64,000 nt of DNA from Escherichia coli O127:H6 str. E2348/69 (GCF_000026545.1 NC_011601.1); one strand, 5' to 3'; counted from the stretch's first letter, positions 13,644 to 24,193 are shown. Notes: generated by a model from the sequence alone, not told the origin. Translations and numbers: made by a program.

Positions 13644-14501
13644 ATGAAATACATTGGAGCGCACGTTAGTGCTGCTGGCGGTCTGGCAAATGCCGCAATT
13701 CGCGCCGCCGAAATCGACGCAACCGCGTTTGCCTTGTTCACCAAAAACCAACGTCAGTGGCGTGCCGCACCGCTCACGACGCAAACCATCGATGAATTCA
13801 AAGCCGCCTGTGAAAAATATCACTACACATCGGCGCAAATTCTTCCCCACGACAGTTATCTGATTAACCTCGGACATCCGGTTGCTGAAGCTCTGGAAAA
13901 ATCGCGCGATGCCTTTATAGATGAAATGCAGCGTTGCGAACAGCTGGGGCTTTCTTTGCTCAACTTCCACCCTGGCAGCCATCTGATGCAGATTTCAGAA
14001 GAGGATTGCCTTGCGCGTATTGCCGAATCCATCAACATTGCGCTGGATAAAACTCAAGGTGTCACCGCGGTGATTGAAAACACCGCCGGTCAGGGCAGTA
14101 ACTTAGGGTTTAAATTCGAACATCTCGCGGCGATTATCGACGGCGTGGAAGATAAATCCCGCGTCGGCGTCTGCATTGATACCTGCCATGCTTTCGCTGC
14201 CGGGTATGATTTGCGTACTCCTGCCGAATGCGAGAAAACGTTCGCTGATTTTGCCCGTATTGTAGGCTTTAAGTATCTGCGCGGGATGCACCTCAACGAT
14301 GCGAAAAGCACCTTTGGCAGCCGCGTTGACCGTCATCATAGCCTCGGCGAAGGCAATATCGGTCATGATGCGTTCCGCTGGATCATGCAAGACGACCGTT
14401 TCGACGGCATTCCGCTGATCCTTGAAACCATCAACCCGGATATCTGGGCAGAAGAGATCGCCTGGCTGAAAGCGCAACAAACTGAAAAAGCGGTGGCCTG
14501 A
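13644..14501 (+). CDS. nfo: Endonuclease IV (AP endonuclease)
   Basis: 285-aa [42 protein letters not shown]... matches Nfo. Confidence 0.95.
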
Positions 14502-14504
14502 TCG

Positions 14505-15593
14505 ATGAACGACAGGGAAAAGCAGATTCTTAAAATTTTACGGCGTAACCCGCTGATTCAACAGAATGAAATCGCCGATATTCTGCAAATCAGCCGCTCA
14601 CGTGTTGCCGCTCATATTATGGATTTGATGCGCAAGGGTTTGATTAAAGGCAAAGGATATATCCTTACCGAGCAGGATTACTGTGTGGTTGTGGGTGCAA
14701 TCAATATGGATATTCGCGGAATGGCGGATATCCGTTACCCGCAAGCAGCCTCTCATCCAGGTTCTGTTCACTGTTCCGCAGGCGGCGTCGGACGTAATAT
14801 CGCGCATAACCTGGCTCTGCTTGGTCGGGATGTGCATTTAATTTCAGCTATTGGCAACGATTTTTACGGCGAGACATTACTGGAAGAAACGCGCCGCTCG
14901 GGCGTGAACGTTTCAAACTGCATTCGTCTGCATGGACACAGCACTGCAACTTATCTCGCTATCGCTAATAAGCAGGAAGAAACTATCCTGGCAATCAATG
15001 ACACACATATTCTGCAACAGCTAACGCCTCAACTGCTCAATACTTCACGGGACTTGATTCGCCATGCTGGTGTGGTGCTGGCTGATTGTAATCTCACACC
15101 TGAAGCCCTGGAGTGGGTCTTTACCATTGCTGATGAAATTCCGATGTTTGTCGATACCGTTTCCGAATTTAAAGCGAACAAAGTAAAAAACTGGTACAGC
15201 CGGATCCACACTCTGAAACCGACACAAAATGAACTGGAAATTTTGTGGGGGCAACCGATTAAAGACGACAACGATCGTATCAGAGCTGTAAATTCGCTGC
15301 ATCAACAAGGTGTTAAACGCATTTTTGTTTATCTGAAAGATGAATCTGTATTTTGCAGCGATAAGGATGGAGAACAATTTTTGCTGACCGCGCCAGCGCA
15401 TACGACAGTAGACAGTTTTGGTGCTGACGATGGTTTTATGGCGGGCCTGGTATATAGCTTTCTTGAAGGATACAGTTTCCGCGACAGCGCCCGTTTTGCG
15501 ATGGCCTGCGCGGCAATTTCACGCGCCAGCGGCAGCTTAAACAACCCTACCCTGTCTGCCGATAACGCGCTTTCATTAGTGCCAATGGTGTAA
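14505..15593 (+). CDS. yeiI: PfkB-family carbohydrate/nucleoside kinase with N-terminal winged-helix domain (YeiI)
   Basis: 362-aa ORF; N-terminal HTH-like segment (MNDREKQILKILRRNPLIQQNEIADILQISRSRVAAHIMDLMRKGLI) followed by a ribokinase-like core (GGVGRNIAHNLALLGR) paralogous to PsuK. Confidence 0.88.
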   Translation: MNDREKQILKILRRNPLIQQNEIADILQISRSRVAAHIMDLMRKGLIKGKGYILTEQDYCVVVGAINMDIRGMADIRYPQAASHPGSVHCSAGGVGRNIAHNLALLGRDVHLISAIGNDFYGETLLEETRRSGVNVSNCIRLHGHSTATYLAIANKQEETILAINDTHILQQLTPQLLNTSRDLIRHAGVVLADCNLTPEALEWVFTIADEIPMFVDTVSEFKANKVKNWYSRIHTLKPTQNELEILWGQPIKDDNDRIRAVNSLHQQGVKRIFVYLKDESVFCSDKDGEQFLLTAPAHTTVDSFGADDGFMAGLVYSFLEGYSFRDSARFAMACAAISRASGSLNNPTLSADNALSLVPMV

Positions 15594-15600
15594 CAATGTT

Positions 15601-15635
15601 GCCGGATTCGACGCTTGACCGCATCTTATCCGGCT
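15601..15635. repeat. REP (repetitive extragenic palindrome) element
   Basis: gccggattcgacgcttgaccgcatcttatccggct resembles the REP consensus GCCGGATGCGGCG...CTTATCCGGCC; between convergent yeiI and nupX. Confidence 0.6.
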
Positions 15636-15648
15636 CATAAATTGCGCA

Positions 15649-16899
15649 CTACGCTAAACCAATAAAGAATCCTGCAATAGTAGCACTCATCAGGTTAGAA
15701 AGTGTCGCCGCCGCCAGCGCGCGTAAACCAAGTTGGGCGATTTCCGGCGCACGGTGTGGCGCAACCGCAGAAAACGCCCCCACCACCACCCCGATAGAAC
15801 CAAAGTTAGCGAAACCGCACAACGCGAAAGAAATAATCGCCACGGTTTTAGCATCCAGAGTGCCACCCGTTTGCAGATATGGCGAGAAATTGAGATAAGC
15901 GACAAATTCATTGATCGCCAGCTTCTGCCCAATCAAACTCCCGGCAAGATTTGCATCACTCCAGTCAACCCCCATCACCCACGCCAATGGGGCCAACAGG
16001 TAACCTAAAATCGACTCCAGCGAAGCATGTTCAAAACCAAACCAGCCGCCAACACCGCCGATAATACCGTTAATCAACGCAATTATTGCAACAAATGCCA
16101 TCACCACTGTCGCCACACCTGCGGCGATTTTCAGCCCGGTCATTGCCCCTGTTGCAGCGGCTTCAATAATGCTCTTTGGCGGTGTTTCGGTGAAAGAGAG
16201 GTTATTAAAGGAAACCTGCGAAGATTCCGTAGCCGGGCTTAACAGGCGGGCAAACAAGATCCCACCGGGAATCGCCATTAACGATGCCGCCAGCAGATAT
16301 TCCACAGGCACGCCCAGTGCGGCGTAACCAATCATTGTCGAACCAGCAATCGAGGCCATACCGCTGCAAATCGCTGTAAATAATTCATTGCGATTCAGCC
16401 GATCGATAAAGGGTTTGACGATTGCCGGAATTTCGTTTTGCCCGAGGAAAATGGTAGTGACCGCGACGAATGACTCGATCTTGCTGATATTTAATGCTTT
16501 CTGGAAGATACCGCCGAGAATTCGAATTAAGATCCCCATCACACCGATGTAGTAGAGAATACTCACCAGCGCGGTGACGAAGATAATTGCCGGTAACACC
16601 CTGAAACCAAAGATAAATCCTGCGCCATCAAATAAGGTATCCATTTTCGGTCCGACCAGAGAACCGAAAATAAATGCGCTACCCGCGTCGCTGTACGCCA
16701 TCACTTTATGGACGCCAAAAGCGACTTTTTCTGCGACCCAACGCCCTGGCGGTAACCAAAGCATTATGCCGCCAATCACGACCTGTAACACTAACGCCGC
16801 GCCAACGGTACGCAGGCTGATCTTCTTTTTGTTTACTGACAGCAAAAACGCAATAGCCAGTAATACCACCATTCCCAGAACACTTCTCATGACATCCAT
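15649..16899 (-). CDS. nupX: NupC-family nucleoside transporter NupX
   Basis: 416-aa ORF; concentrative nucleoside transporter fold; close paralog of the psuT product in this window. Confidence 0.9.
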   Translation of the reverse strand: MDVMRSVLGMVVLLAIAFLLSVNKKKISLRTVGAALVLQVVIGGIMLWLPPGRWVAEKVAFGVHKVMAYSDAGSAFIFGSLVGPKMDTLFDGAGFIFGFRVLPAIIFVTALVSILYYIGVMGILIRILGGIFQKALNISKIESFVAVTTIFLGQNEIPAIVKPFIDRLNRNELFTAICSGMASIAGSTMIGYAALGVPVEYLLAASLMAIPGGILFARLLSPATESSQVSFNNLSFTETPPKSIIEAAATGAMTGLKIAAGVATVVMAFVAIIALINGIIGGVGGWFGFEHASLESILGYLLAPLAWVMGVDWSDANLAGSLIGQKLAINEFVAYLNFSPYLQTGGTLDAKTVAIISFALCGFANFGSIGVVVGAFSAVAPHRAPEIAQLGLRALAAATLSNLMSATIAGFFIGLA

Positions 16900-16998
16900 A
16901 GTTATTATCTCTTCATGTCATTTTGGGCGACGGCTCTCTGCCCATCATAAATAGCCGGGCCTGCATCTTGCGATACTGACCCGGCTTGTTATCAACAC

Positions 16999-17940
16999 TT
17001 AATGGGTTTTTATGTAGCCGCGTACGCACTCTTCGACTAATCCCCAGAACCAGTCGGTATCAATAGTGATGCCGACTTTGGTATTGGCGGGCTTGCCAAG
17101 AACACCCAGCTCGTCGCAGACGGTACGCCCATAGCAAGGGCCACTGTTAACGTCCACTTCGACGTACATTTCCTGGGTTTTAATGCCATCAGGGTTAATC
17201 AAATAACCGATGCAGGTGGCGTCGTGCACCGGGCCGCCAGCCAGGCCGTAGTTTTCGAACTGCGTTTTGAGAGTGAAGTTCATGATGTCGCTGAACAGCT
17301 CTCCGGCAGGGCCGCCAGCCCTTTCCATCCGAGCAATCACATCCGGGGTGCAAACGGTCTGGTTGGTAAGATCGAGGCCCATCATCACTAATGGAACGCC
17401 GGAGGTGAACACCACACGTGCGGCCTCCGGGTCAGCAAAGATGTTGAACTCAGCAGATGGGGTGAAGTTGCCAGTACCATAAGCACCGCCCATCAGAACA
17501 ATTTCACGGATTTTCGGCAGGATCGCGGGTTGCATACGCATTGCCACCGCGATGTTTGACAACGGACCAACCGGCACCAGAGTGATATCGCCATCGCTTG
17601 CCATAAGGGTATCGATGATATATTTCACCGCATGAGTGTTTTCTGCCTGGCGGGTCAGCGGCTCGAATACCGGGCCATCCAGTCCGGTTTCACCGTGAAT
17701 ATTATCGGCAACAATTTGTTGACGCATAATGGGCTGCGGCATCCCCGCATAAACCGGAACATTAATCTCCAGTTTCTGGCAAACATTCAGGCCATTAATT
17801 AATGTTTTATCGAGGGTTTGATTACCCGCTACAATGGTGATACCTAATAAATCAATCGCCGGATGTTTCGCCGCCATCATTATAGCAATAGCATCATCAT
17901 GACCCGGATCACAATCCAGAATAATTTTTCTCTTTTCCAT
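16999..17940 (-). CDS. rihB: Pyrimidine-specific ribonucleoside hydrolase RihB
   Basis: 313-aa ORF with N-terminal DCDPGHDDA nucleoside-hydrolase motif; matches RihB (YeiK). Confidence 0.92.
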
Positions 17941-18108
17941 TGTTTATTTCCTCTGTTTCCAGTTGCGTTATTGTTTCTACAGCAAAGAAAATTCGATCGG
18001 GCCGATGATTGAATCTTAACAACAGCGTACGTATGCTAAATATGAGAAATCTCATAGCGGATAAACATCGTGAAAGAAATCCACAATAATGATCTTAAGC
18101 AGCAATTG

Positions 18109-18768
18109 ATGAGTGAATCTGCGTTTAAGGATTGCTTTTCAACGGATGTTTCAGCCGATACGCGGCTGTTTCATTTTTTAGCGCGTGACTACATTGTGCA
18201 GGAAGGGCAACAGCCGTCCTGGCTGTTTTACCTGACGCGAGGCCGCGCCAGGCTTTACGTCACGCTTGCTAATGGTCGCGTGTCGCTGATCGATTTCTTT
18301 GCCGCGCCCTGTTTTATTGGCGAGATTGAGTTAATCGACAAAGACCATGAACCGCGTGCAGTGCAGGCTATTGAAGAGTGTTGGTGCCTTGCGCTCCCTA
18401 TGAAGCATTACCGCCCGTTGTTATTAAACGACACGCTATTTTTACGAAAACTCTGCGTCACCTTAAGTCATAAAAATTATCGTAATATTGTTTCTTTAAC
18501 TCAGAATCAATCATTTCCGTTAGTGAATCGCCTGGCAGCTTTTATATTACTCTCGCAGGAAGGTGATCTTTATCACGAAAAGCATACGCAAGCGGCAGAG
18601 TATTTAGGCGTCTCTTATCGTCATCTTTTATATGTTCTCGCGCAATTCATTAATGACGGTTTATTAATTAAAAGCAAGAAAGGGTATCTCATTAAAAACA
18701 GAAAGCAGTTGTCAGGACTGGCGCTGGAGATGGACCCGGAGAATAAATTCTCCGGGATGATGCAGTAA
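18109..18768 (+). CDS. yeiL: CRP/FNR-family transcriptional regulator YeiL
   Basis: ORF 18070-18768 (232 aa) trimmed to [10 protein letters not shown]... giving the recalled 219 aa; cNMP-binding-like domain plus C-terminal HTH; start could be 18070. Confidence 0.85.
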
Positions 18769-18790
18769 AAATTATTGGCAATAGTGCGAT

Positions 18791-18827
18791 TGCCGGATGC
18801 AACGCTTAATAAGGTGTACATCCGGCA
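18791..18827. repeat. REP-like palindromic element
   Basis: tgccggatgcaacgcttaataaggtgtacatccggca; terminal inverted repeats GCCGGATG/CATCCGGC; between yeiL and psuT. Confidence 0.5.
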
Positions 18828-18834
18828 ATGAAAC

Positions 18835-20085
18835 TCAAGCTAAACCAATAAAGAACCCGGCAATGGTCGCGCTCATCAGGTTAGAAAGTGTCGCCGCCGC
18901 CAGCGCCCGTAAACCAAGCTGGGCGATTTCCGGCGCACGTTTTGGCGAAATAGCCGAAAACGCCCCAACGACAACACCGATAGAACCAAAGTTAGCAAAA
19001 CCACACAGCGCAAAGGAGATGATCGCCACGGTTTTCACTTCCAGCGTGCCGCCCGTTTGCAGATATGGCGAAAAACTCAGGTAAGCGACAAATTCGTTAA
19101 TCGCCAGTTTCTGCCCAATCAAACTTCCGGCAAGATTTGCATCACTCCAGTCCACCCCCATAATCCATGCCAACGGGGCCAGCACATAGCCGAAAATGCT
19201 TTCCAGAGAGACATTGGCAAAACCAAACCAGCCGCCAACTCCACCAATAATGCCGTTGATCAGCGCAATGATCGCCACAAATGCCATTACCACCGTCGCC
19301 ACACCGGCGGCGATTTTCAGCCCGGTCATTGCACCGTTCGCCGCAGCTTCAATAATGCTTTTTGGCGGTGTTTCGCTAAACGACAGATTTTCAAATGTCA
19401 CCTGCGAAGGCTCGGTGGCTGGGCTAAGAATACGTGCAAACAAAATACCACCAGGGATCGCCATCAGCGATGCCGCTAACAGGTAGTCAATTGGTACGCC
19501 CATTCCGGCATAACCAATCATCATCGAACCGGCAATGGACGCCATCCCGCTACAAATTGCCGTAAATAGCTCGTTGCGATTCATGCGATCGATAAACGGT
19601 TTAACGATCGCCGGGATCTCATTTTGCCCGAGGAAAATAGTGGTAACCGCAACAAAAGATTCGATTTTGCTGATGTTGAGGGCTTTCTGAAAAATACTAC
19701 CAAGAATGCGGATTAGCAGCCCCATCACGCCAATGTAGTACAGCAGGCTGATGAGCGCGGTAACGAAAATAATCGCCGGGAGTACGCGAAAGGCGAAGAT
19801 AAAGCCCGCACCGTCAAACAGAACATCCATTTTGGGACCGACCAGCGAACCAAAAATAAAGGCACTTCCTGCGTCACTGTAGGACATCACTTTATGGACG
19901 CCTAATGCCGCCTGCTCTACTGCCCATTTTCCCGGGGGAAAATAGAGCATGATGCCACCAATGGCAATTTGCAGCAGCAGCGCAGCCCCAACCGTGCGCA
20001 AGCTGATGCTCTTTTTATTTACCGACAACACAAAGGCAATTGCCAGCAATACCACCATCCCCACAACACTTCTCATTATATCCAT
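18835..20085 (-). CDS. psuT: NupC-family pseudouridine/nucleoside transporter PsuT
   Basis: 416-aa ORF, roughly 88% identical by eye to NupX; heads the distal end of the psuK-psuG-psuT operon. Confidence 0.9.
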   Translation of the reverse strand: MDIMRSVVGMVVLLAIAFVLSVNKKSISLRTVGAALLLQIAIGGIMLYFPPGKWAVEQAALGVHKVMSYSDAGSAFIFGSLVGPKMDVLFDGAGFIFAFRVLPAIIFVTALISLLYYIGVMGLLIRILGSIFQKALNISKIESFVAVTTIFLGQNEIPAIVKPFIDRMNRNELFTAICSGMASIAGSMMIGYAGMGVPIDYLLAASLMAIPGGILFARILSPATEPSQVTFENLSFSETPPKSIIEAAANGAMTGLKIAAGVATVVMAFVAIIALINGIIGGVGGWFGFANVSLESIFGYVLAPLAWIMGVDWSDANLAGSLIGQKLAINEFVAYLSFSPYLQTGGTLEVKTVAIISFALCGFANFGSIGVVVGAFSAISPKRAPEIAQLGLRALAAATLSNLMSATIAGFFIGLA

Positions 20086-20178
20086 AATGATTTTCCCTTC
20101 ATGCCAGTAAACCCGGCGTCAGCGCCAGGTTTTGGTATGTTTGATGAGTACGGGCGACGGCTTTCTGCCCACCAGAAA

Positions 20179-21117
20179 TTAACCCACGAGACGCTGATAT
20201 TCTTTGGCAATTTCGCTCGCCAGAATGGCGTTATTAAAGACCAGTTGAATATTGGATTTCAGGCTATCACCGCCGGTTAGCTCCGCAACACGCGCCAGCA
20301 GGAACGGTGTACTCTCTTTCCCAATAACACCCTGTTCTTCGGCTTCAGCAACGGCTTGATCAATTGCTGCATTGATGGTTTCTTCTGGCATCGCAAACTG
20401 TTCCGGGATCGGGTTCGCTACCACCAGGCCGCCGTTCAAACCGGTTTGCCACTTCACTGCCATCGCGCGAGCAATTTCGCGGGCACTGTCAAGACGAATG
20501 CTGACTTCAAATGGGCTGGTTCGGCAGAAAAACGCAGGCAGCGCTTTTGTCTGATAACCAATTAACGGTACACCGAAGGTTTCTAAATATTCTGTTGTTA
20601 ATCCTAAATCGAGAATAGATTTTGCCCCCGCACAAACAACAGTGACATTGGTATTTGCCAGTTCCTGTAAATCGGCAGAAATATCGAAGGTATGTTCCGC
20701 TCCGCGATGCACACCACCAATACCTCCGGTTGCAAAAACTTTAATCCCAGCCAGTGCTGCAATAATCATGGTTGATGCAACGGTAGTCGCGCCATTTTTC
20801 CCTGCAGCAACGACAAAAGGTAAATCACGACGACTAACTTTCGTCACGTTATGTCCTTCACGGCCCAGCAATTCGATTTCTTCTTTACTTAAGCCCACTT
20901 TCATCACACCGCCAATAATGGCGATAGTGGCTGGTACTGCGCCCTGTTTACGAATTGTTTCTTCTACTTCAATTGCGGTTTGGGCATTTTGTGGGAATGG
21001 CATTCCGTGAGAAATTATGGTCGATTCCAGCGCAACAACCGGTTTTTTATTTTTTAAAGCATCCTGTACTTCAGCGGATATTTGTAATAATTCAGGGGAC
21101 AGAGTTAATTCAGACAT
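20179..21117 (-). CDS. psuG: Pseudouridine-5'-phosphate glycosidase PsuG
   Basis: 312-aa ORF MSELTLSPELLQISAEVQDALKNKKPVVALESTIISHGMPFPQN...; indigoidine-synthase-A-like fold; matches PsuG (YeiN). Confidence 0.92.
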   Translation of the reverse strand: MSELTLSPELLQISAEVQDALKNKKPVVALESTIISHGMPFPQNAQTAIEVEETIRKQGAVPATIAIIGGVMKVGLSKEEIELLGREGHNVTKVSRRDLPFVVAAGKNGATTVASTMIIAALAGIKVFATGGIGGVHRGAEHTFDISADLQELANTNVTVVCAGAKSILDLGLTTEYLETFGVPLIGYQTKALPAFFCRTSPFEVSIRLDSAREIARAMAVKWQTGLNGGLVVANPIPEQFAMPEETINAAIDQAVAEAEEQGVIGKESTPFLLARVAELTGGDSLKSNIQLVFNNAILASEIAKEYQRLVG

Positions 21118-22046
21118 TCTGTGTTCTCCACTAACGATGTAACATTGGCAATTGATAATTCAGGGTTGTTGGTATATTCACAGGCAAGTGCCATTGACGA
21201 ACATCCCTGCGCAAATCGAACAGAATCGATAAACGGCATACCGTCTACCCAACAGGAGGCCAGCCCCGCCATCATGGCGTCGCCTGCCCCAGTAACATTG
21301 ATGACATTCGTTTTAATAGGGGCCGACCACCCACTTTCACCGTTGATATCACTGTAGTAAACGCCATCCCCTCCCATGCTCAGCACCAGGCGGTTCAGGC
21401 CGTGTTGATGAAACCAGGCGGCGACCTTTGCGACATCTTCACGTCCGGAAAGTGCAATTCCGCTCAACGTTTCGGCTTCAAGACGGTTAGGTTTTAACGT
21501 ATGGATTTTGCTCAGATGATCGCGGATTTTGACGCATTTCCATGCCGATACCGGATCAATAAATACAGGCGTTTCCCCGCTATTTTCCAGAACCCAGACC
21601 AGCGCCTCTTCACTAAGGTTGCAATCCGCGACAATAACCTTTGCACCGCGAATAAACTCCTGATGCTGGGCAAGAAATTCTGCAGAAATACAGTCACTAA
21701 TACTCATATCATTTATCGCGACAAGCATTTCTCCTGTATTATCGAGCAGTGATAAATAGCTGGATGTATTCTCACCCGGAACAATTAAGCATTTATCGAC
21801 ATAAACACCGGATTGATTAGTTTGCGCCAGTAATGATTGCCCATAAAAATCACCACCTACTGCACTTAAAAGCCAGGCATTTTTCCCCAGTAACGCCAGA
21901 TTATGAGCGATATTCCTTCCCACGCCACCTGGGGTAAATTTAATTTTTCCGGGATTCGAATCCGCATAATTCAATGGATGATGTGAATACCCAGCCACAT
22001 CAATATTCGCCGAGCCAATAATTACTATGTAGTCCTTTTCGCGCAT
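21105..22046 (-). CDS. psuK: Pseudouridine kinase PsuK (PfkB family)
   Basis: Frame 21105-22160 trimmed to MREKDYIVIIGSANIDVAGYS... giving the recalled 313 aa; overlaps the psuG start. Confidence 0.88.
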   Translation of the reverse strand: MREKDYIVIIGSANIDVAGYSHHPLNYADSNPGKIKFTPGGVGRNIAHNLALLGKNAWLLSAVGGDFYGQSLLAQTNQSGVYVDKCLIVPGENTSSYLSLLDNTGEMLVAINDMSISDCISAEFLAQHQEFIRGAKVIVADCNLSEEALVWVLENSGETPVFIDPVSAWKCVKIRDHLSKIHTLKPNRLEAETLSGIALSGREDVAKVAAWFHQHGLNRLVLSMGGDGVYYSDINGESGWSAPIKTNVINVTGAGDAMMAGLASCWVDGMPFIDSVRFAQGCSSMALACEYTNNPELSIANVTSLVENTECLN

Positions 22047-22289
22047 AGCACGCCCCCTGGCAATAAATTGCCAACGAAGAAATTGGGTAAAATAGTCATT
22101 ACAGTCAATAAGACTATTAGAGCACGTGTTCAGATTTAAACACATGTTCATAATAAGCATGTTTAACGTAATGTAAATCGATCAGAAAAAACGAAATCGG
22201 CCAGATATGAAGGCGGTCACAAAATTTGTCTATTTATGCAGCAACAAAAGAGAAAGTTGTGATGTGTAACACACAATATGGCAGGCAAG

Positions 22290-22314
22290 AAAAAGGGCAG
22301 AGATGTTTCTGCCC
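22290..22314 (-). terminator. Rho-independent terminator (distal terminator of the fruBKA transcript)
   Basis: Minus strand reads GGGCAGA-aacatc-TCTGCCC followed by TTTTT. Confidence 0.55.
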
Positions 22315-22345
22315 TCAGATTGTTGACAATGCGCGCTTTGTTCAT

Positions 22346-22444
22346 GCTGGATGTGGCGTAAACGCCTTATCCGACCTACAAAAGCGCAAAAATTCAATAT
22401 ATTGCAGGGTTCATGTAGGTCTGATAAGCATAGCGCATCAGGCA
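22346..22444. repeat. BIME: pair of inverted REP elements
   Basis: gctggatgtggcgtaaacgccttatccgacctac (22346-22379) and gtaggtctgataagcatagcgcatcaggca (22415-22444) both match REP consensus variants in opposite orientation. Confidence 0.6.
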
Positions 22445-22456
22445 ATTTTGCGTTTG

Positions 22457-22494
22457 TCATCATCGGGGCAGAGATGTCTCAGCCCCGATGATGA
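22457..22494. other. Perfect 13-bp-stem hairpin immediately 3' of fruA
   Basis: tcatcatcggggc (22457-22469) pairs perfectly with gccccgatgatga (22482-22494), 12-nt loop; no adjacent T-tract so not a classical intrinsic terminator. Confidence 0.5.
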
Positions 22495-22501
22495 AGAGAA
22501 A

Positions 22502-24193
22502 TTATGCGTTTTTTTCTACTATTTGTGTTTCCGGGCGTTTGAGGAAGGCATAGGCCAAACCCGCCACCAGCGTACCGGCAATAATTGCTACCAGGTAACC
22601 CAATACCGGCGTAATAGCGCCAGGGATCAGCAGAACAAACAGACCACCGTGTGGTGCCATCAGTTTCGCACCAATCGCCATTGAAATTGCGCCAGTCAGC
22701 GCCCCACCAACGATACAGCACGGTAGCACACGCATCGGATCACGAGCAGCAAACGGAATTGCACCTTCCGAAATAAAGCACAGACCAAGTACCAGAGCGG
22801 CTTTGCCACCTTCCTGCTGCGCTTTGTCGAATTTGCGACGCGCCACCATTGTTGCCAGACCCATTGCCAGCGGTGGCACCATACCTGCCGCCATAATCGC
22901 CGCCATCGGGCCATAGGTTTGAGTACTCAGCAGACCCACACCGAATGCGTACGCTGCTTTGTTTACCGGACCGCCCATGTCAGTACACATCATGCCACCG
23001 AGGATCGCCCCCAGCAGAACCGCATTCGCAGTCCCCATGGTCTGCAGCCAGTGAGTCAACCCATCGAGAATGCCAGCAACCGGTTTACCGATTAGGTAGA
23101 TCATCGCCAGACCGACCACCAGACTGGAAATTAGCGGAATGATCAGGATCGGTTTCAGTGCCTCCATACTCTGTGGCAGTTTCAGTTGCGTACTGATTAA
23201 CTTCGCAATGTAACCCGCCAGGAAGCCCGCAATAATACCACCAATGAAGCCAGAACCGGTGCTAACCGCCAGCATACCGCCAATCAGACCCGGCGTGAGA
23301 CCCGGACGATCGGCAATGGAGAAGGCAATATAACCTGCCAGTACCGGCACCATCAGCGCAAAGGCTGAACCACCACCAATCTGCATCAGCGCCGCTGCCA
23401 ACGTACCCGGCTCTTTAAACGCTTCGATACCAAAAGCAAAAGAAAGCGCGATACACAGACCACCTGCAACAACCATCGGCAGCATGTAAGAGACGCCCGT
23501 CAGCAAGTGACGGTAAGCACCTGCACTCTCTTTCTTACCTTCAGTGGTCGCTGTTTGAGTTTTGCCCGCCGGTTCATACGGCGTTGCTTCAGCAACCGCT
23601 TTATCCAGTTCCTGCGCAGTTTTCTTCAGCGCCAGACCGGTAGAGGTGCGATACATCGGTTTACCAGCAAATTTCGCCAGATCCACTTCGATATCTGCCG
23701 CCACAATCACCAGATCCGCTGCTGCGACTTCTTCAGGGGTGATTGCATTGCCCGCGCCAACAGAACCACGGGTTTCAACTTTCACCCACCAGCCACGTTT
23801 TTTCGCTTCGGTTTCAATGGCTTCAGCCGCCATAAAGGTGTGTGCTACGCCAGTCGGGCAAGCAGTCACCGCAACTACGCGTTTCGGACCGCTGGCAGCA
23901 ACCGGTGCTGTCGCAGCGACCGGCGCAGTGTAAGGTTTCGCATGGCCTTTGGCTTCACTCAGGAACAACTCAGGGTGCGCAACTGCCCGGGAAATATCAC
24001 CCAGCCAGACATTTTTACCGTTCAGCGCGCTGTCATTCGGGATGGAATCACCGAGAACAATCGCCATTTCTGCGTCGTTCGGATTGTCGATGATTTCCAG
24101 TTTTGCTTTTCGCGCCGCCGCGCCCAGCAGGGTCTTCGCCATATAGGCGCGTGCCTGACCGAGATTAGCGTCAATAATCAGCAGCGTTTTCAT
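22502..24193 (-). CDS. fruA: Fructose PTS EIIB'BC component FruA
   Basis: 563-aa ORF matching FruA. Confidence 0.95.
   Translation of the reverse strand: MKTLLIIDANLGQARAYMAKTLLGAAARKAKLEIIDNPNDAEMAIVLGDSIPNDSALNGKNVWLGDISRAVAHPELFLSEAKGHAKPYTAPVAATAPVAASGPKRVVAVTACPTGVAHTFMAAEAIETEAKKRGWWVKVETRGSVGAGNAITPEEVAAADLVIVAADIEVDLAKFAGKPMYRTSTGLALKKTAQELDKAVAEATPYEPAGKTQTATTEGKKESAGAYRHLLTGVSYMLPMVVAGGLCIALSFAFGIEAFKEPGTLAAALMQIGGGSAFALMVPVLAGYIAFSIADRPGLTPGLIGGMLAVSTGSGFIGGIIAGFLAGYIAKLISTQLKLPQSMEALKPILIIPLISSLVVGLAMIYLIGKPVAGILDGLTHWLQTMGTANAVLLGAILGGMMCTDMGGPVNKAAYAFGVGLLSTQTYGPMAAIMAAGMVPPLAMGLATMVARRKFDKAQQEGGKAALVLGLCFISEGAIPFAARDPMRVLPCCIVGGALTGAISMAIGAKLMAPHGGLFVLLIPGAITPVLGYLVAIIAGTLVAGLAYAFLKRPETQIVEKNA

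Follow-up and report, generated by a model that had tools for sequence, protein, structure and literature searches.

The tufA and tufB genes of Salmonella and Escherichia coli are about 99% identical, lie in inverted orientation and are kept homogeneous, exchanging sequence by conversion and rearranging the chromosome by recombination. Hybrid genes such as the delta-beta fusion of haemoglobin Lepore and the red/green opsin hybrids are, in turn, the textbook outcome of unequal crossover. The locus studied here is the direct repeat formed by the transporter genes nupX and psuT of E. coli O127:H6 strain E2348/69, located at positions 15,601 to 20,085 of a 64,000-nucleotide stretch of DNA (the window), which is a part of the E2348/69 chromosome (NC_011601.1; 100% identity over 6.7 kb by BLAST). 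Five of 5,426 complete E. coli genomes have lost exactly one 3186-bp period of this repeat and retain one in-register hybrid of the two genes between the parental flanks.

As with tufA and tufB, dispersed paralogous coding sequences serve here as recombination substrates, with conversion patches and occasional rearrangements as the result. Unlike those genes, nupX and psuT are only 78-80% identical, are directly oriented 3.2 kb apart and have diverged in function, so that exchange is infrequent and limited to patches, and rearrangement takes the form of a small deletion that produces a hybrid gene. As with Lepore and the opsins, an in-register crossover deletes the interval and leaves one in-frame chimera under the promoter of the upstream copy, with junctions that differ between independent events. 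Here, however, the chromosome is bacterial and haploid, the “anti-Lepore” duplication was not found in the 5,426 genomes, and the interval holds two unrelated genes, rihB and yeiL. Hence, the kind of event is already known, yet natural PsuT-NupX hybrids are unreported in the literature searched, which includes an engineered deletion of the whole locus in strain DGF-298 and one transport study. NupC, NupX and PsuT are known nucleoside transporters of E. coli, and the paralogy of NupX and PsuT has been described (PMC11241209).

Natural deletion alleles with a hybrid transporter gene

The left copy, nupX (yeiJ; 15649-16899, minus strand; nupX is the RefSeq name), and the right copy, psuT (yeiM; 18835-20085, minus strand), which belongs to the psuK-psuG-psuT operon, are both 416-codon open reading frames (ORFs) of the concentrative nucleoside transporter (CNT, TC 2.A.41) family. 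They share the Pfam architecture Nucleos_tra2_N/Gate/Nucleos_tra2_C, and these domains score above gathering thresholds, with 243±1, 81 and 56 bits, in NupX, PsuT and one of the hybrids (that of strain SY019) alike. The interval that can be deleted contains rihB, encoding a pyrimidine ribonucleoside hydrolase (16999-17940, minus strand), and yeiL, encoding a CRP/FNR-family regulator (18070-18768, plus strand), both of which are absent from the five hybrid genomes.

A first-pass annotation of the window had proposed a same-orientation repeat of about 1.25 kb, with both genes on the minus strand and long runs of identical nucleotides, and had set 75% identity and perfect runs of 20 bp as the lower limits for this proposal. 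The alignment bears it out: 1001 of 1251 nucleotides are identical (80.0%) at a fixed offset of 3186 bp and with zero indels, and there are seven perfect runs of at least 20 bp. The longest run, 35 bp (15686-15720 in nupX, 18872-18906 in psuT), includes the 34-mer that the annotation had given as an example. The 250 differences are split 43/19/188 by codon position, and the proteins, each other's nearest relatives in E. coli, are 89% identical in amino acids. Identity is uneven along the gene, with 85.4% in the 3' 500 nt and 76.4% in the remainder. Across eight intact haplotypes, within-strain identity between the two genes ranges from 78.0% to 80.0%, and the longest perfect run ranges from 20 to 38 bp and varies in location.

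The annotation had further predicted that recombination between the copies could delete rihB and yeiL and create a chimeric transporter. Given that ranking whole-region BLAST matches by coverage could not single out rare deletion genomes, a flank-join query was used instead, in which 1.3 kb of the yeiI flank were fused to 1.3 kb of the psuG/psuK flank. In normal genomes the two halves lie 4.5 kb apart and are scored separately, and they merge only if about 3.2 kb are missing. A merged full-length match was obtained in five of the 5,426 genomes, which turns the prediction into five independent natural cases: 11PC (mink, China), CFSAN004176 (USA), SY019 (Korea), EH10-18-47 (Laos) and E203449 (Mali). 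All five are annotated with yeiH-nfo-yeiI, one CNT gene and psuG-psuK-fruA, without rihB and yeiL.

K-12 nupX and K-12 psuT differ at 265 sites, along which each hybrid changes once, from a nupX-type 3' end to a psuT-type 5' part, at a position that is different in each strain. The junctions were mapped against single intact sister genomes; parent pairs drawn from different strains were dropped, since they are able to narrow the identity blocks artificially. Counting from the stop-codon end, the 11PC junction lies at 49-54 nt, in a 5-bp identity block (parent 13TMH22; window equivalent 15698-15702), that of CFSAN004176 at 274-287 nt, in a 13-bp block (parent 2013C-4830; 15923-15935), that of EH10-18-47 at 304-327 nt, in a 23-bp block (parent K-12; 15953-15975), and that of SY019 at 472-495 nt, in another 23-bp block (parent 2017C-4173W12; 16121-16143). 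Each of these four hybrids can be assembled exactly from the nupX and psuT of one intact genome, with zero mismatches over the 1251 bp of the gene and 300 bp of each flank. For E203449, with a junction at 163-168 nt in a 5-bp block (15812-15816), no perfect intact parent was found, and the best one, WP8-S18-CRE-02, leaves 19 mismatches, all distant from the junction.

The natural crossover zone thus spans window-equivalent positions 15698-16143. All five junctions are clean single switches, in register, within the more similar 3' 40% of the gene (85% identity, versus 76% elsewhere). The five distinct junctions, together with five different YeiI alleles, show that the events are independent. 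Each hybrid gene is an uninterrupted ORF of 416 codons with the usual CNT architecture, and the products correspond to PsuT with 0, 4, 7, 8 or 13 substitutions of NupX type in the C-terminal domain; that of the 11PC hybrid is identical to K-12 PsuT.

Two readings would deprive these genomes of their meaning as deletions. The first is that they are artefacts of assembly, either collapsed repeats or mis-joins. For three of the five, the record is a “whole genome shotgun” assembly at chromosome level, and the junctions fall in short identity blocks, at which a graph assembler could switch paths. Nevertheless, at least two of the five are finished complete genomes, the strains differ in laboratory, host and country of origin as well as in their junctions, and copies of only about 79% identity are too divergent for collapse. 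Moreover, a mis-join would keep the unique 1.8-kb segment between the copies, whereas the eight of 5,426 genomes in which no rihB-yeiL match is detectable accommodate all five hybrids. This tally fits the five hybrids, the insertion sequence (IS) deletion of strain ET734 described below and one or two larger losses. Hence, we consider an artefact very unlikely.

The second reading is that the single-transporter genomes retain an ancestral locus into which nothing was ever inserted, as in E. albertii. Their gene order does match that of E. albertii, Citrobacter and Leclercia. A true ancestral psuT would, however, be psuT-type throughout, as it is in E. albertii, whereas each hybrid has a nupX-type 3' segment of 49-495 nt that equals the nupX of a sister strain, the rest being equal to the psuT of that strain, and the flanks are identical to those of E. 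coli relatives with the full locus. The mismatch-free two-parent reconstruction refutes the ancestral reading for four of the five hybrids, and for the set as a whole we find it barely credible. The crossover deletion between nupX and psuT is therefore real but rare, and mechanistically ordinary.

Edges of the repeat unit and conversion between the copies

The repeat unit is longer than the genes: it consists of a repetitive extragenic palindromic (REP) element, the coding sequence and a leader motif, amounting to about 1.35 kb in direct orientation with a period of 3186 bp. The first-pass annotation had placed a REP-type palindrome 3' of each gene, and both are there. The motif GCCGGAT-N-ATCCGGC occurs at 15601-15634 and 18792-18826 and has no other match in the window, with 0.01 expected by chance. 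Both palindromes are imperfect inverted repeats outside genes (14-nt arms 79% complementary, 20-nt arms 80% complementary), located 10 nt from the nupX stop codon and 5 nt from the psuT stop codon.

The left element (15601-15638, between the yeiI and nupX stops) forms the left edge of the repeat unit. It is a degenerate REP palindrome with five substitutions relative to the Stern-type consensus, scored here as GCC(G/T)GATGCG(G/A)CG(C/T)-N0-8-(G/A)CG(C/T)CTTATC(C/A)GGCCTAC. The right one (18789-18829, between the yeiL and psuT stops) is REP-derived and remodelled, without a match to this consensus at up to five substitutions. On the same scale, the K-12 nupX-side element has zero substitutions, the K-12 psuT-side element three and that of E. 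albertii three. E. albertii has, in its single psuT-yeiI spacer, a REP orthologous to the nupX-side element, in the same register and near-identical in sequence, and the K-12 psuT-side (yeiL-side) REP is the same element as the nupX-side REP, again in the same register. The REP and a 14-nt linker stand in identical register 3' of both stop codons, and homology ends directly past the REP. Next to nupX, K-12 has an extra 51 bp holding a second, inverted REP, a pair resembling a bacterial interspersed mosaic element (BIME).

These elements resemble known REPs and BIMEs in being imperfect palindromes within 3' intergenic spacers, and K-12 provides both an exact copy and an inverted partner. They differ in that the E2348/69 copies are degenerate (five and more than five substitutions) and in that they mark the end of a repeat unit instead of driving the deletion, with none of the five crossovers mapping to them. 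The psuT-side element of E2348/69 has 20-nt arms and a 1-nt loop (TTGCCGGATG...CATCCGGCAA), and its right half is unlike the K-12 REP; it looks as though one arm was re-templated from the other. Other matches to the REP right arm in the window, at up to two mismatches, lie at 22366, 22415 and 45671. An inverted REP pair is present between psuK and fruA (22340-22428), with weak Rfam matches to naRNA4 and ES036, below gathering scores.

On the upstream side, homology reaches about 45-85 nt beyond the start codons, with a 41-nt indel, through a hairpin-like leader motif. Upstream of nupX this motif (16925-16943, minus strand; mRNA sense GGGCAGAGAGCCGTCGCCC / GGGCAGARAGCCGTCGCCC) forms the right edge of the left repeat unit, and upstream of psuT (20152-20170, minus strand; mRNA sense GGGCAGARAGCCGTCGCCC), just past the psuG stop, that of the right unit. 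The motif is a small GGGC...GCCC hairpin, found upstream of both paralogues and of relatives in Citrobacter, Leclercia, Superficieibacter and Raoultella, with one compensatory outer pair in Leclercia; in Hafnia, the equivalent place is occupied by a hairpin whose sequence is unrelated. In psuT and some relatives the hairpin is followed by CATCAnnCATACCnAAA, which does not follow it in E. coli nupX. The psuT leader also has a second hairpin (20112-20129), with a conserved stem and then a U run, about 25 nt before the start codon. The shared leader may act as an intercistronic RNA element with a regulatory or stabilising role. An Rfam scan of 14000-23000 (E≤1) gave no match at the leader or the REPs and only weak matches to REP-derived small RNAs at 22340-22422, and a consensus promoter and terminator scan performed no better than on shuffled sequence.

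Within these edges, short patches have moved between the copies. Strings of diagnostic sites were compared across the eight intact haplotypes, with significance assessed by run-length permutation in 16 tests. The 3'-terminal 55 nt or so of K-12 nupX (offsets 0-54, including the TGA stop) present nine consecutive psuT-type sites (p<5e-5), and psuT of strain M1 presents seven consecutive nupX-type sites (p=0.001). The psuT of E2348/69 presents five consecutive nupX-type sites that are not found in K-12 or M1 psuT (p=0.018 uncorrected, marginal after 16 tests). As this last run yields the 35-bp perfect match, the match is probably a short, lineage-specific nupX-to-psuT conversion patch and not a relic of the original copy. 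Polymorphism shared by the paralogues was also considered as a conversion signal and dropped: 49 sites are polymorphic in both, which is about the number to be expected by chance when most variation falls at third codon positions.

Origin of the two copies

The first-pass annotation had described the pair as an old segmental duplication that carried the REP with it. The identical register of the REP and its presence in the E. albertii spacer support its inclusion in the copied unit; a duplication in place, on the other hand, is disfavoured by synonymous divergence (dS), phylogeny, synteny and the existence of the yeiL-rihB-CNT module on its own.

The dS between nupX and psuT is 1.18-1.39, near saturation. 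It is two to four times the E. coli-E. albertii value (0.29-0.73) and similar to that of E. coli-Citrobacter orthologues (1.06-1.58 for psuT, nfo and yeiH). Synteny was surveyed on contigs from one genome per species, among the matches listed, which do not comprise Salmonella, E. fergusonii or E. marmotae. Within this scope, E. albertii, three Citrobacter species and Leclercia present yeiH-nfo-yeiI followed by psuT-psuG-psuK-fruA, without nupX, rihB and yeiL. C. freundii has been described as having NupC and PsuT only (PMC11241209). At the amino-acid sites fixed between NupX and PsuT, the transporter of E. albertii is PsuT-type in 35 of 37 cases and that of Citrobacter in 27-28 of 37, including four of four and three of four C-terminal sites, respectively, which indicates that these single genes are not deletion hybrids. 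In Superficieibacter, Hafnia alvei and Raoultella, rihB and a gene for a 416-residue CNT protein form a module with a divergent yeiL-like regulator, located in unrelated genomic neighbourhoods. In a neighbour-joining tree, Escherichia and Citrobacter PsuT form a clade that leaves out E. coli NupX, with 86% bootstrap.

Given the high dS, the single-psuT outgroups, the stand-alone modules and the tree that excludes NupX, nupX and psuT are most likely ancient paralogues, brought side by side when, in the E. coli lineage, yeiL-rihB-nupX was inserted between yeiI and psuT. The competing account is that psuT and its downstream REP were duplicated in place in an Escherichia ancestor, after which the copies diverged and the rihB operon took over one of them. 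Such a duplication would explain why the copies are close by, in direct orientation and each other's closest E. coli relatives, and homology that continues collinearly beyond the genes, downstream into the REP and linker, which are in identical register, and upstream into the leader hairpin, is what it leads one to expect. It would also make the two genes in-paralogues, whereas the PsuT clade leaves out NupX, the paralogue dS matches that of E. coli-Citrobacter orthologues, a single PsuT-type gene is found in the outgroups surveyed, and the yeiL-rihB-CNT triad travels as a unit in three other genera. The leader hairpin, being also present upstream of the foreign rihB-linked transporters, is no evidence for a local copy. 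A duplication in place is, in our judgement, distinctly unlikely.

Two highly divergent classes of E. coli haplotypes exist at yeiI (14505-15593) and at psuG, psuK and the psuK-fruA spacer (20179-22500). Between E2348/69 and K-12, yeiI and psuK differ by about 19% and psuG by 12%, while yeiH and nfo differ by only 0.5% and nupX-rihB-yeiL by 2-4.5%. Matches to the flank query are bimodal, 2006 records being at least 99% identical to it and 3351 between 80% and 90%. The E2348/69 haplotype is 91-92% identical to E. albertii, and the majority K-12 type is about 79-81% identical to both, for which reason the latter looks like an ancient or foreign allele.

A more mobile history can also be imagined, in which rihB-yeiL and one transporter copy form a cassette that is moved by homologous recombination alone: a crossover would excise a 3186-bp circle, and Campbell-type integration of such a circle, or of DNA taken up by transformation or transduction, into the psuT of a genome without the module would be its route of entry between yeiI and psuT. 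If true, this would explain both the presence of REP and leader on the two copies and the low divergence of nupX-rihB-yeiL between haplotypes whose yeiI and psuK are so different. We regard this cassette as an improbable conjecture. A Campbell-type origin with the crossover inside the coding sequence found no support, nucleotide windows being ambiguous and E. albertii being PsuT-type at all four C-terminal sites.

Recombination at the locus and its significance

Taken jointly, the observations are best explained by ancient paralogues that were juxtaposed by insertion of a module and that have since, as homeologous repeats, yielded conversion patches and rare crossover deletions, an explanation that we hold to be probable. 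The genes belong to two separate operons, rihB-nupX, with yeiL as divergent regulator, and psuK-psuG-psuT. Comparative synteny and phylogeny suggest that the arrival of the yeiL-rihB-nupX module between yeiI and psuT would have created the two homeologous direct units, which at 78-80% identity are a poor but usable substrate for homologous recombination. One outcome, seen in the diagnostic sites, is short conversion patches between the paralogues, mainly at the 3' end. The other, seen in the five genomes, is a rare, in-register unequal crossover that removes the 5' part of nupX, rihB, yeiL and the 3' part of psuT; in such an event, misaligned copies would pair between sister chromosomes or within one, with strand exchange through the mismatches and resolution as a deletion. 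The remaining in-frame hybrid is driven by the psu operon and ends with the nupX 3' end and the nupX REP. The gene order after deletion is that of E. albertii and Citrobacter.

The deletions may have come from strand exchange by RecA or from RecA-independent misalignment. The annotation had assumed RecA, and dependence on it is plausible. The deletions number five, all singletons, among roughly 4,450 genomes with both copies, a rarity that fits strong suppression of recombination at about 20% divergence. A divergence of this size strongly inhibits recombination controlled by RecA and mismatch repair, and this can also be counted in favour of a RecA-independent route, that is, real deletions by replication slippage, by template switching or by annealing of single strands where the misaligned copies share short identities. 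Two of the junctions lie in 5-bp blocks and one in 13 bp, and the locus has other deletions at microhomologies of 3-6 nt (the internal nupX deletion of 971 genomes and the E. ruysiae-like contig, both described below). Five junctions that are exactly in register and clustered in the 3' 40% of the gene, however, fit pairing guided by long homology, and the mapped block is the point at which a heteroduplex was resolved, not the point at which pairing started. RecA-independent deletion is also said, from work of the Lovett laboratory, to drop steeply with distance, 3.2 kb being long for it. A RecA-independent origin of the deletions thus seems unlikely, if a serious candidate.

Several points weigh against the explanation by juxtaposed paralogues and homeologous exchange. 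The two 5-bp junction blocks are shorter than the 23-27 bp or so that are usually quoted, reportedly after Shen and Huang in 1986, for efficient RecBCD/RecA recombination. The reciprocal tandem duplication, searched for as a yeiL-CNT-rihB adjacency with a junction query containing random filler, was found in none of the 5,426 genomes, the two best matches being internal rihB deletions. That rihB-yeiL is gone from the whole genome of the five hybrid strains is deduced from the genome counts. The placement of NupX relative to the rihB-linked transporters of other genera has bootstrap values of only 23-52%, so that synteny is the main ground for orthology of the module. That both copies have a REP beside them in the same register is left unexplained by simple insertion of a module, and calls for a recombination-based insertion or a later conversion; independent gain of the REP is a further possibility. 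Lastly, E. albertii and Citrobacter could possibly derive from an ancestral two-copy locus that was repeatedly lost by deletions at the extreme 3' end, like that of 11PC.

The transporter pair has also been broken up in other ways. Among the 5,426 genomes, 971 have an identical internal nupX deletion of 1135 bp (window 15698-16832) with a 3-nt microhomology junction, and only 49 bp at the 3' end and 67 bp at the 5' end of the gene remain; carriers include the type strain ATCC 11775 and Nissle 1917. As a result, about 18% of genomes are without the repeat pair. In an E. ruysiae-like contig (L102 7864-7919; Logan SRR15598565; the protein is named E. ruysiae in NCBI), psuK-psuG-psuT-yeiL(split)-rihB adjoins yeiI, nupX and its leader having been removed between an AGCCGG in the rihB terminator hairpin and an AGCCGG in the REP, a 6-nt microhomology. 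This contig represents a third independent way of losing nupX, and it suggests that the nupX-rihB-yeiL arrangement may extend beyond E. coli proper. In strain ET734 (L015 2900-4418), IS1 stands in place of the 5' part of nupX, rihB and yeiL, and in TUM2820 (L098 2346-4253), ISKpn26 stands in place of the 3' end of nfo, yeiI, nupX, rihB and most of yeiL. In E. coli, a RihB variant of 287 residues, shortened by an internal in-frame deletion of 78 bp (L010 2600-3463), is common, one such protein being recorded on up to 484 contigs.

Parts of the locus are found on plasmids as well. Large conjugative IncHI1A plasmids of E. coli carry the chromosomal yeiL-psuT-psuG-psuK block beside an ISVsa5 transposase (pLAO65, NZ_OP242285.1, L101 3836-7816; H165-H170), with alleles identical to those of phylogroup-B2-like chromosomes. 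Through these plasmids, host strains acquire a mobile psu operon and a third copy of the transporter.

For the history of the transporter family, these results correct the origin of the pair: in place of a young local duplication, two old paralogues would have been juxtaposed by acquisition of yeiL-rihB-nupX. For the stability of paralogues in general, the locus offers a population-scale measure of how a direct repeat of 1.25 kb and about 79% identity behaves in a natural chromosome, namely five singleton deletions, a few short conversion patches and no duplication found, which is of calibration value for models of homeologous recombination and of paralogue stability. There is also a consequence for annotation, as full-length hybrids are given only generic names by the annotation pipeline. 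Finally, in one published assay uridine and cytidine were transported by NupX and not by PsuT (PMC11241209). Given this difference in transport, the hybrids, whose C-terminal domain makes up much of the substrate site and contains as many as 13 NupX residues, are ready-made natural chimeras for the mapping of specificity.

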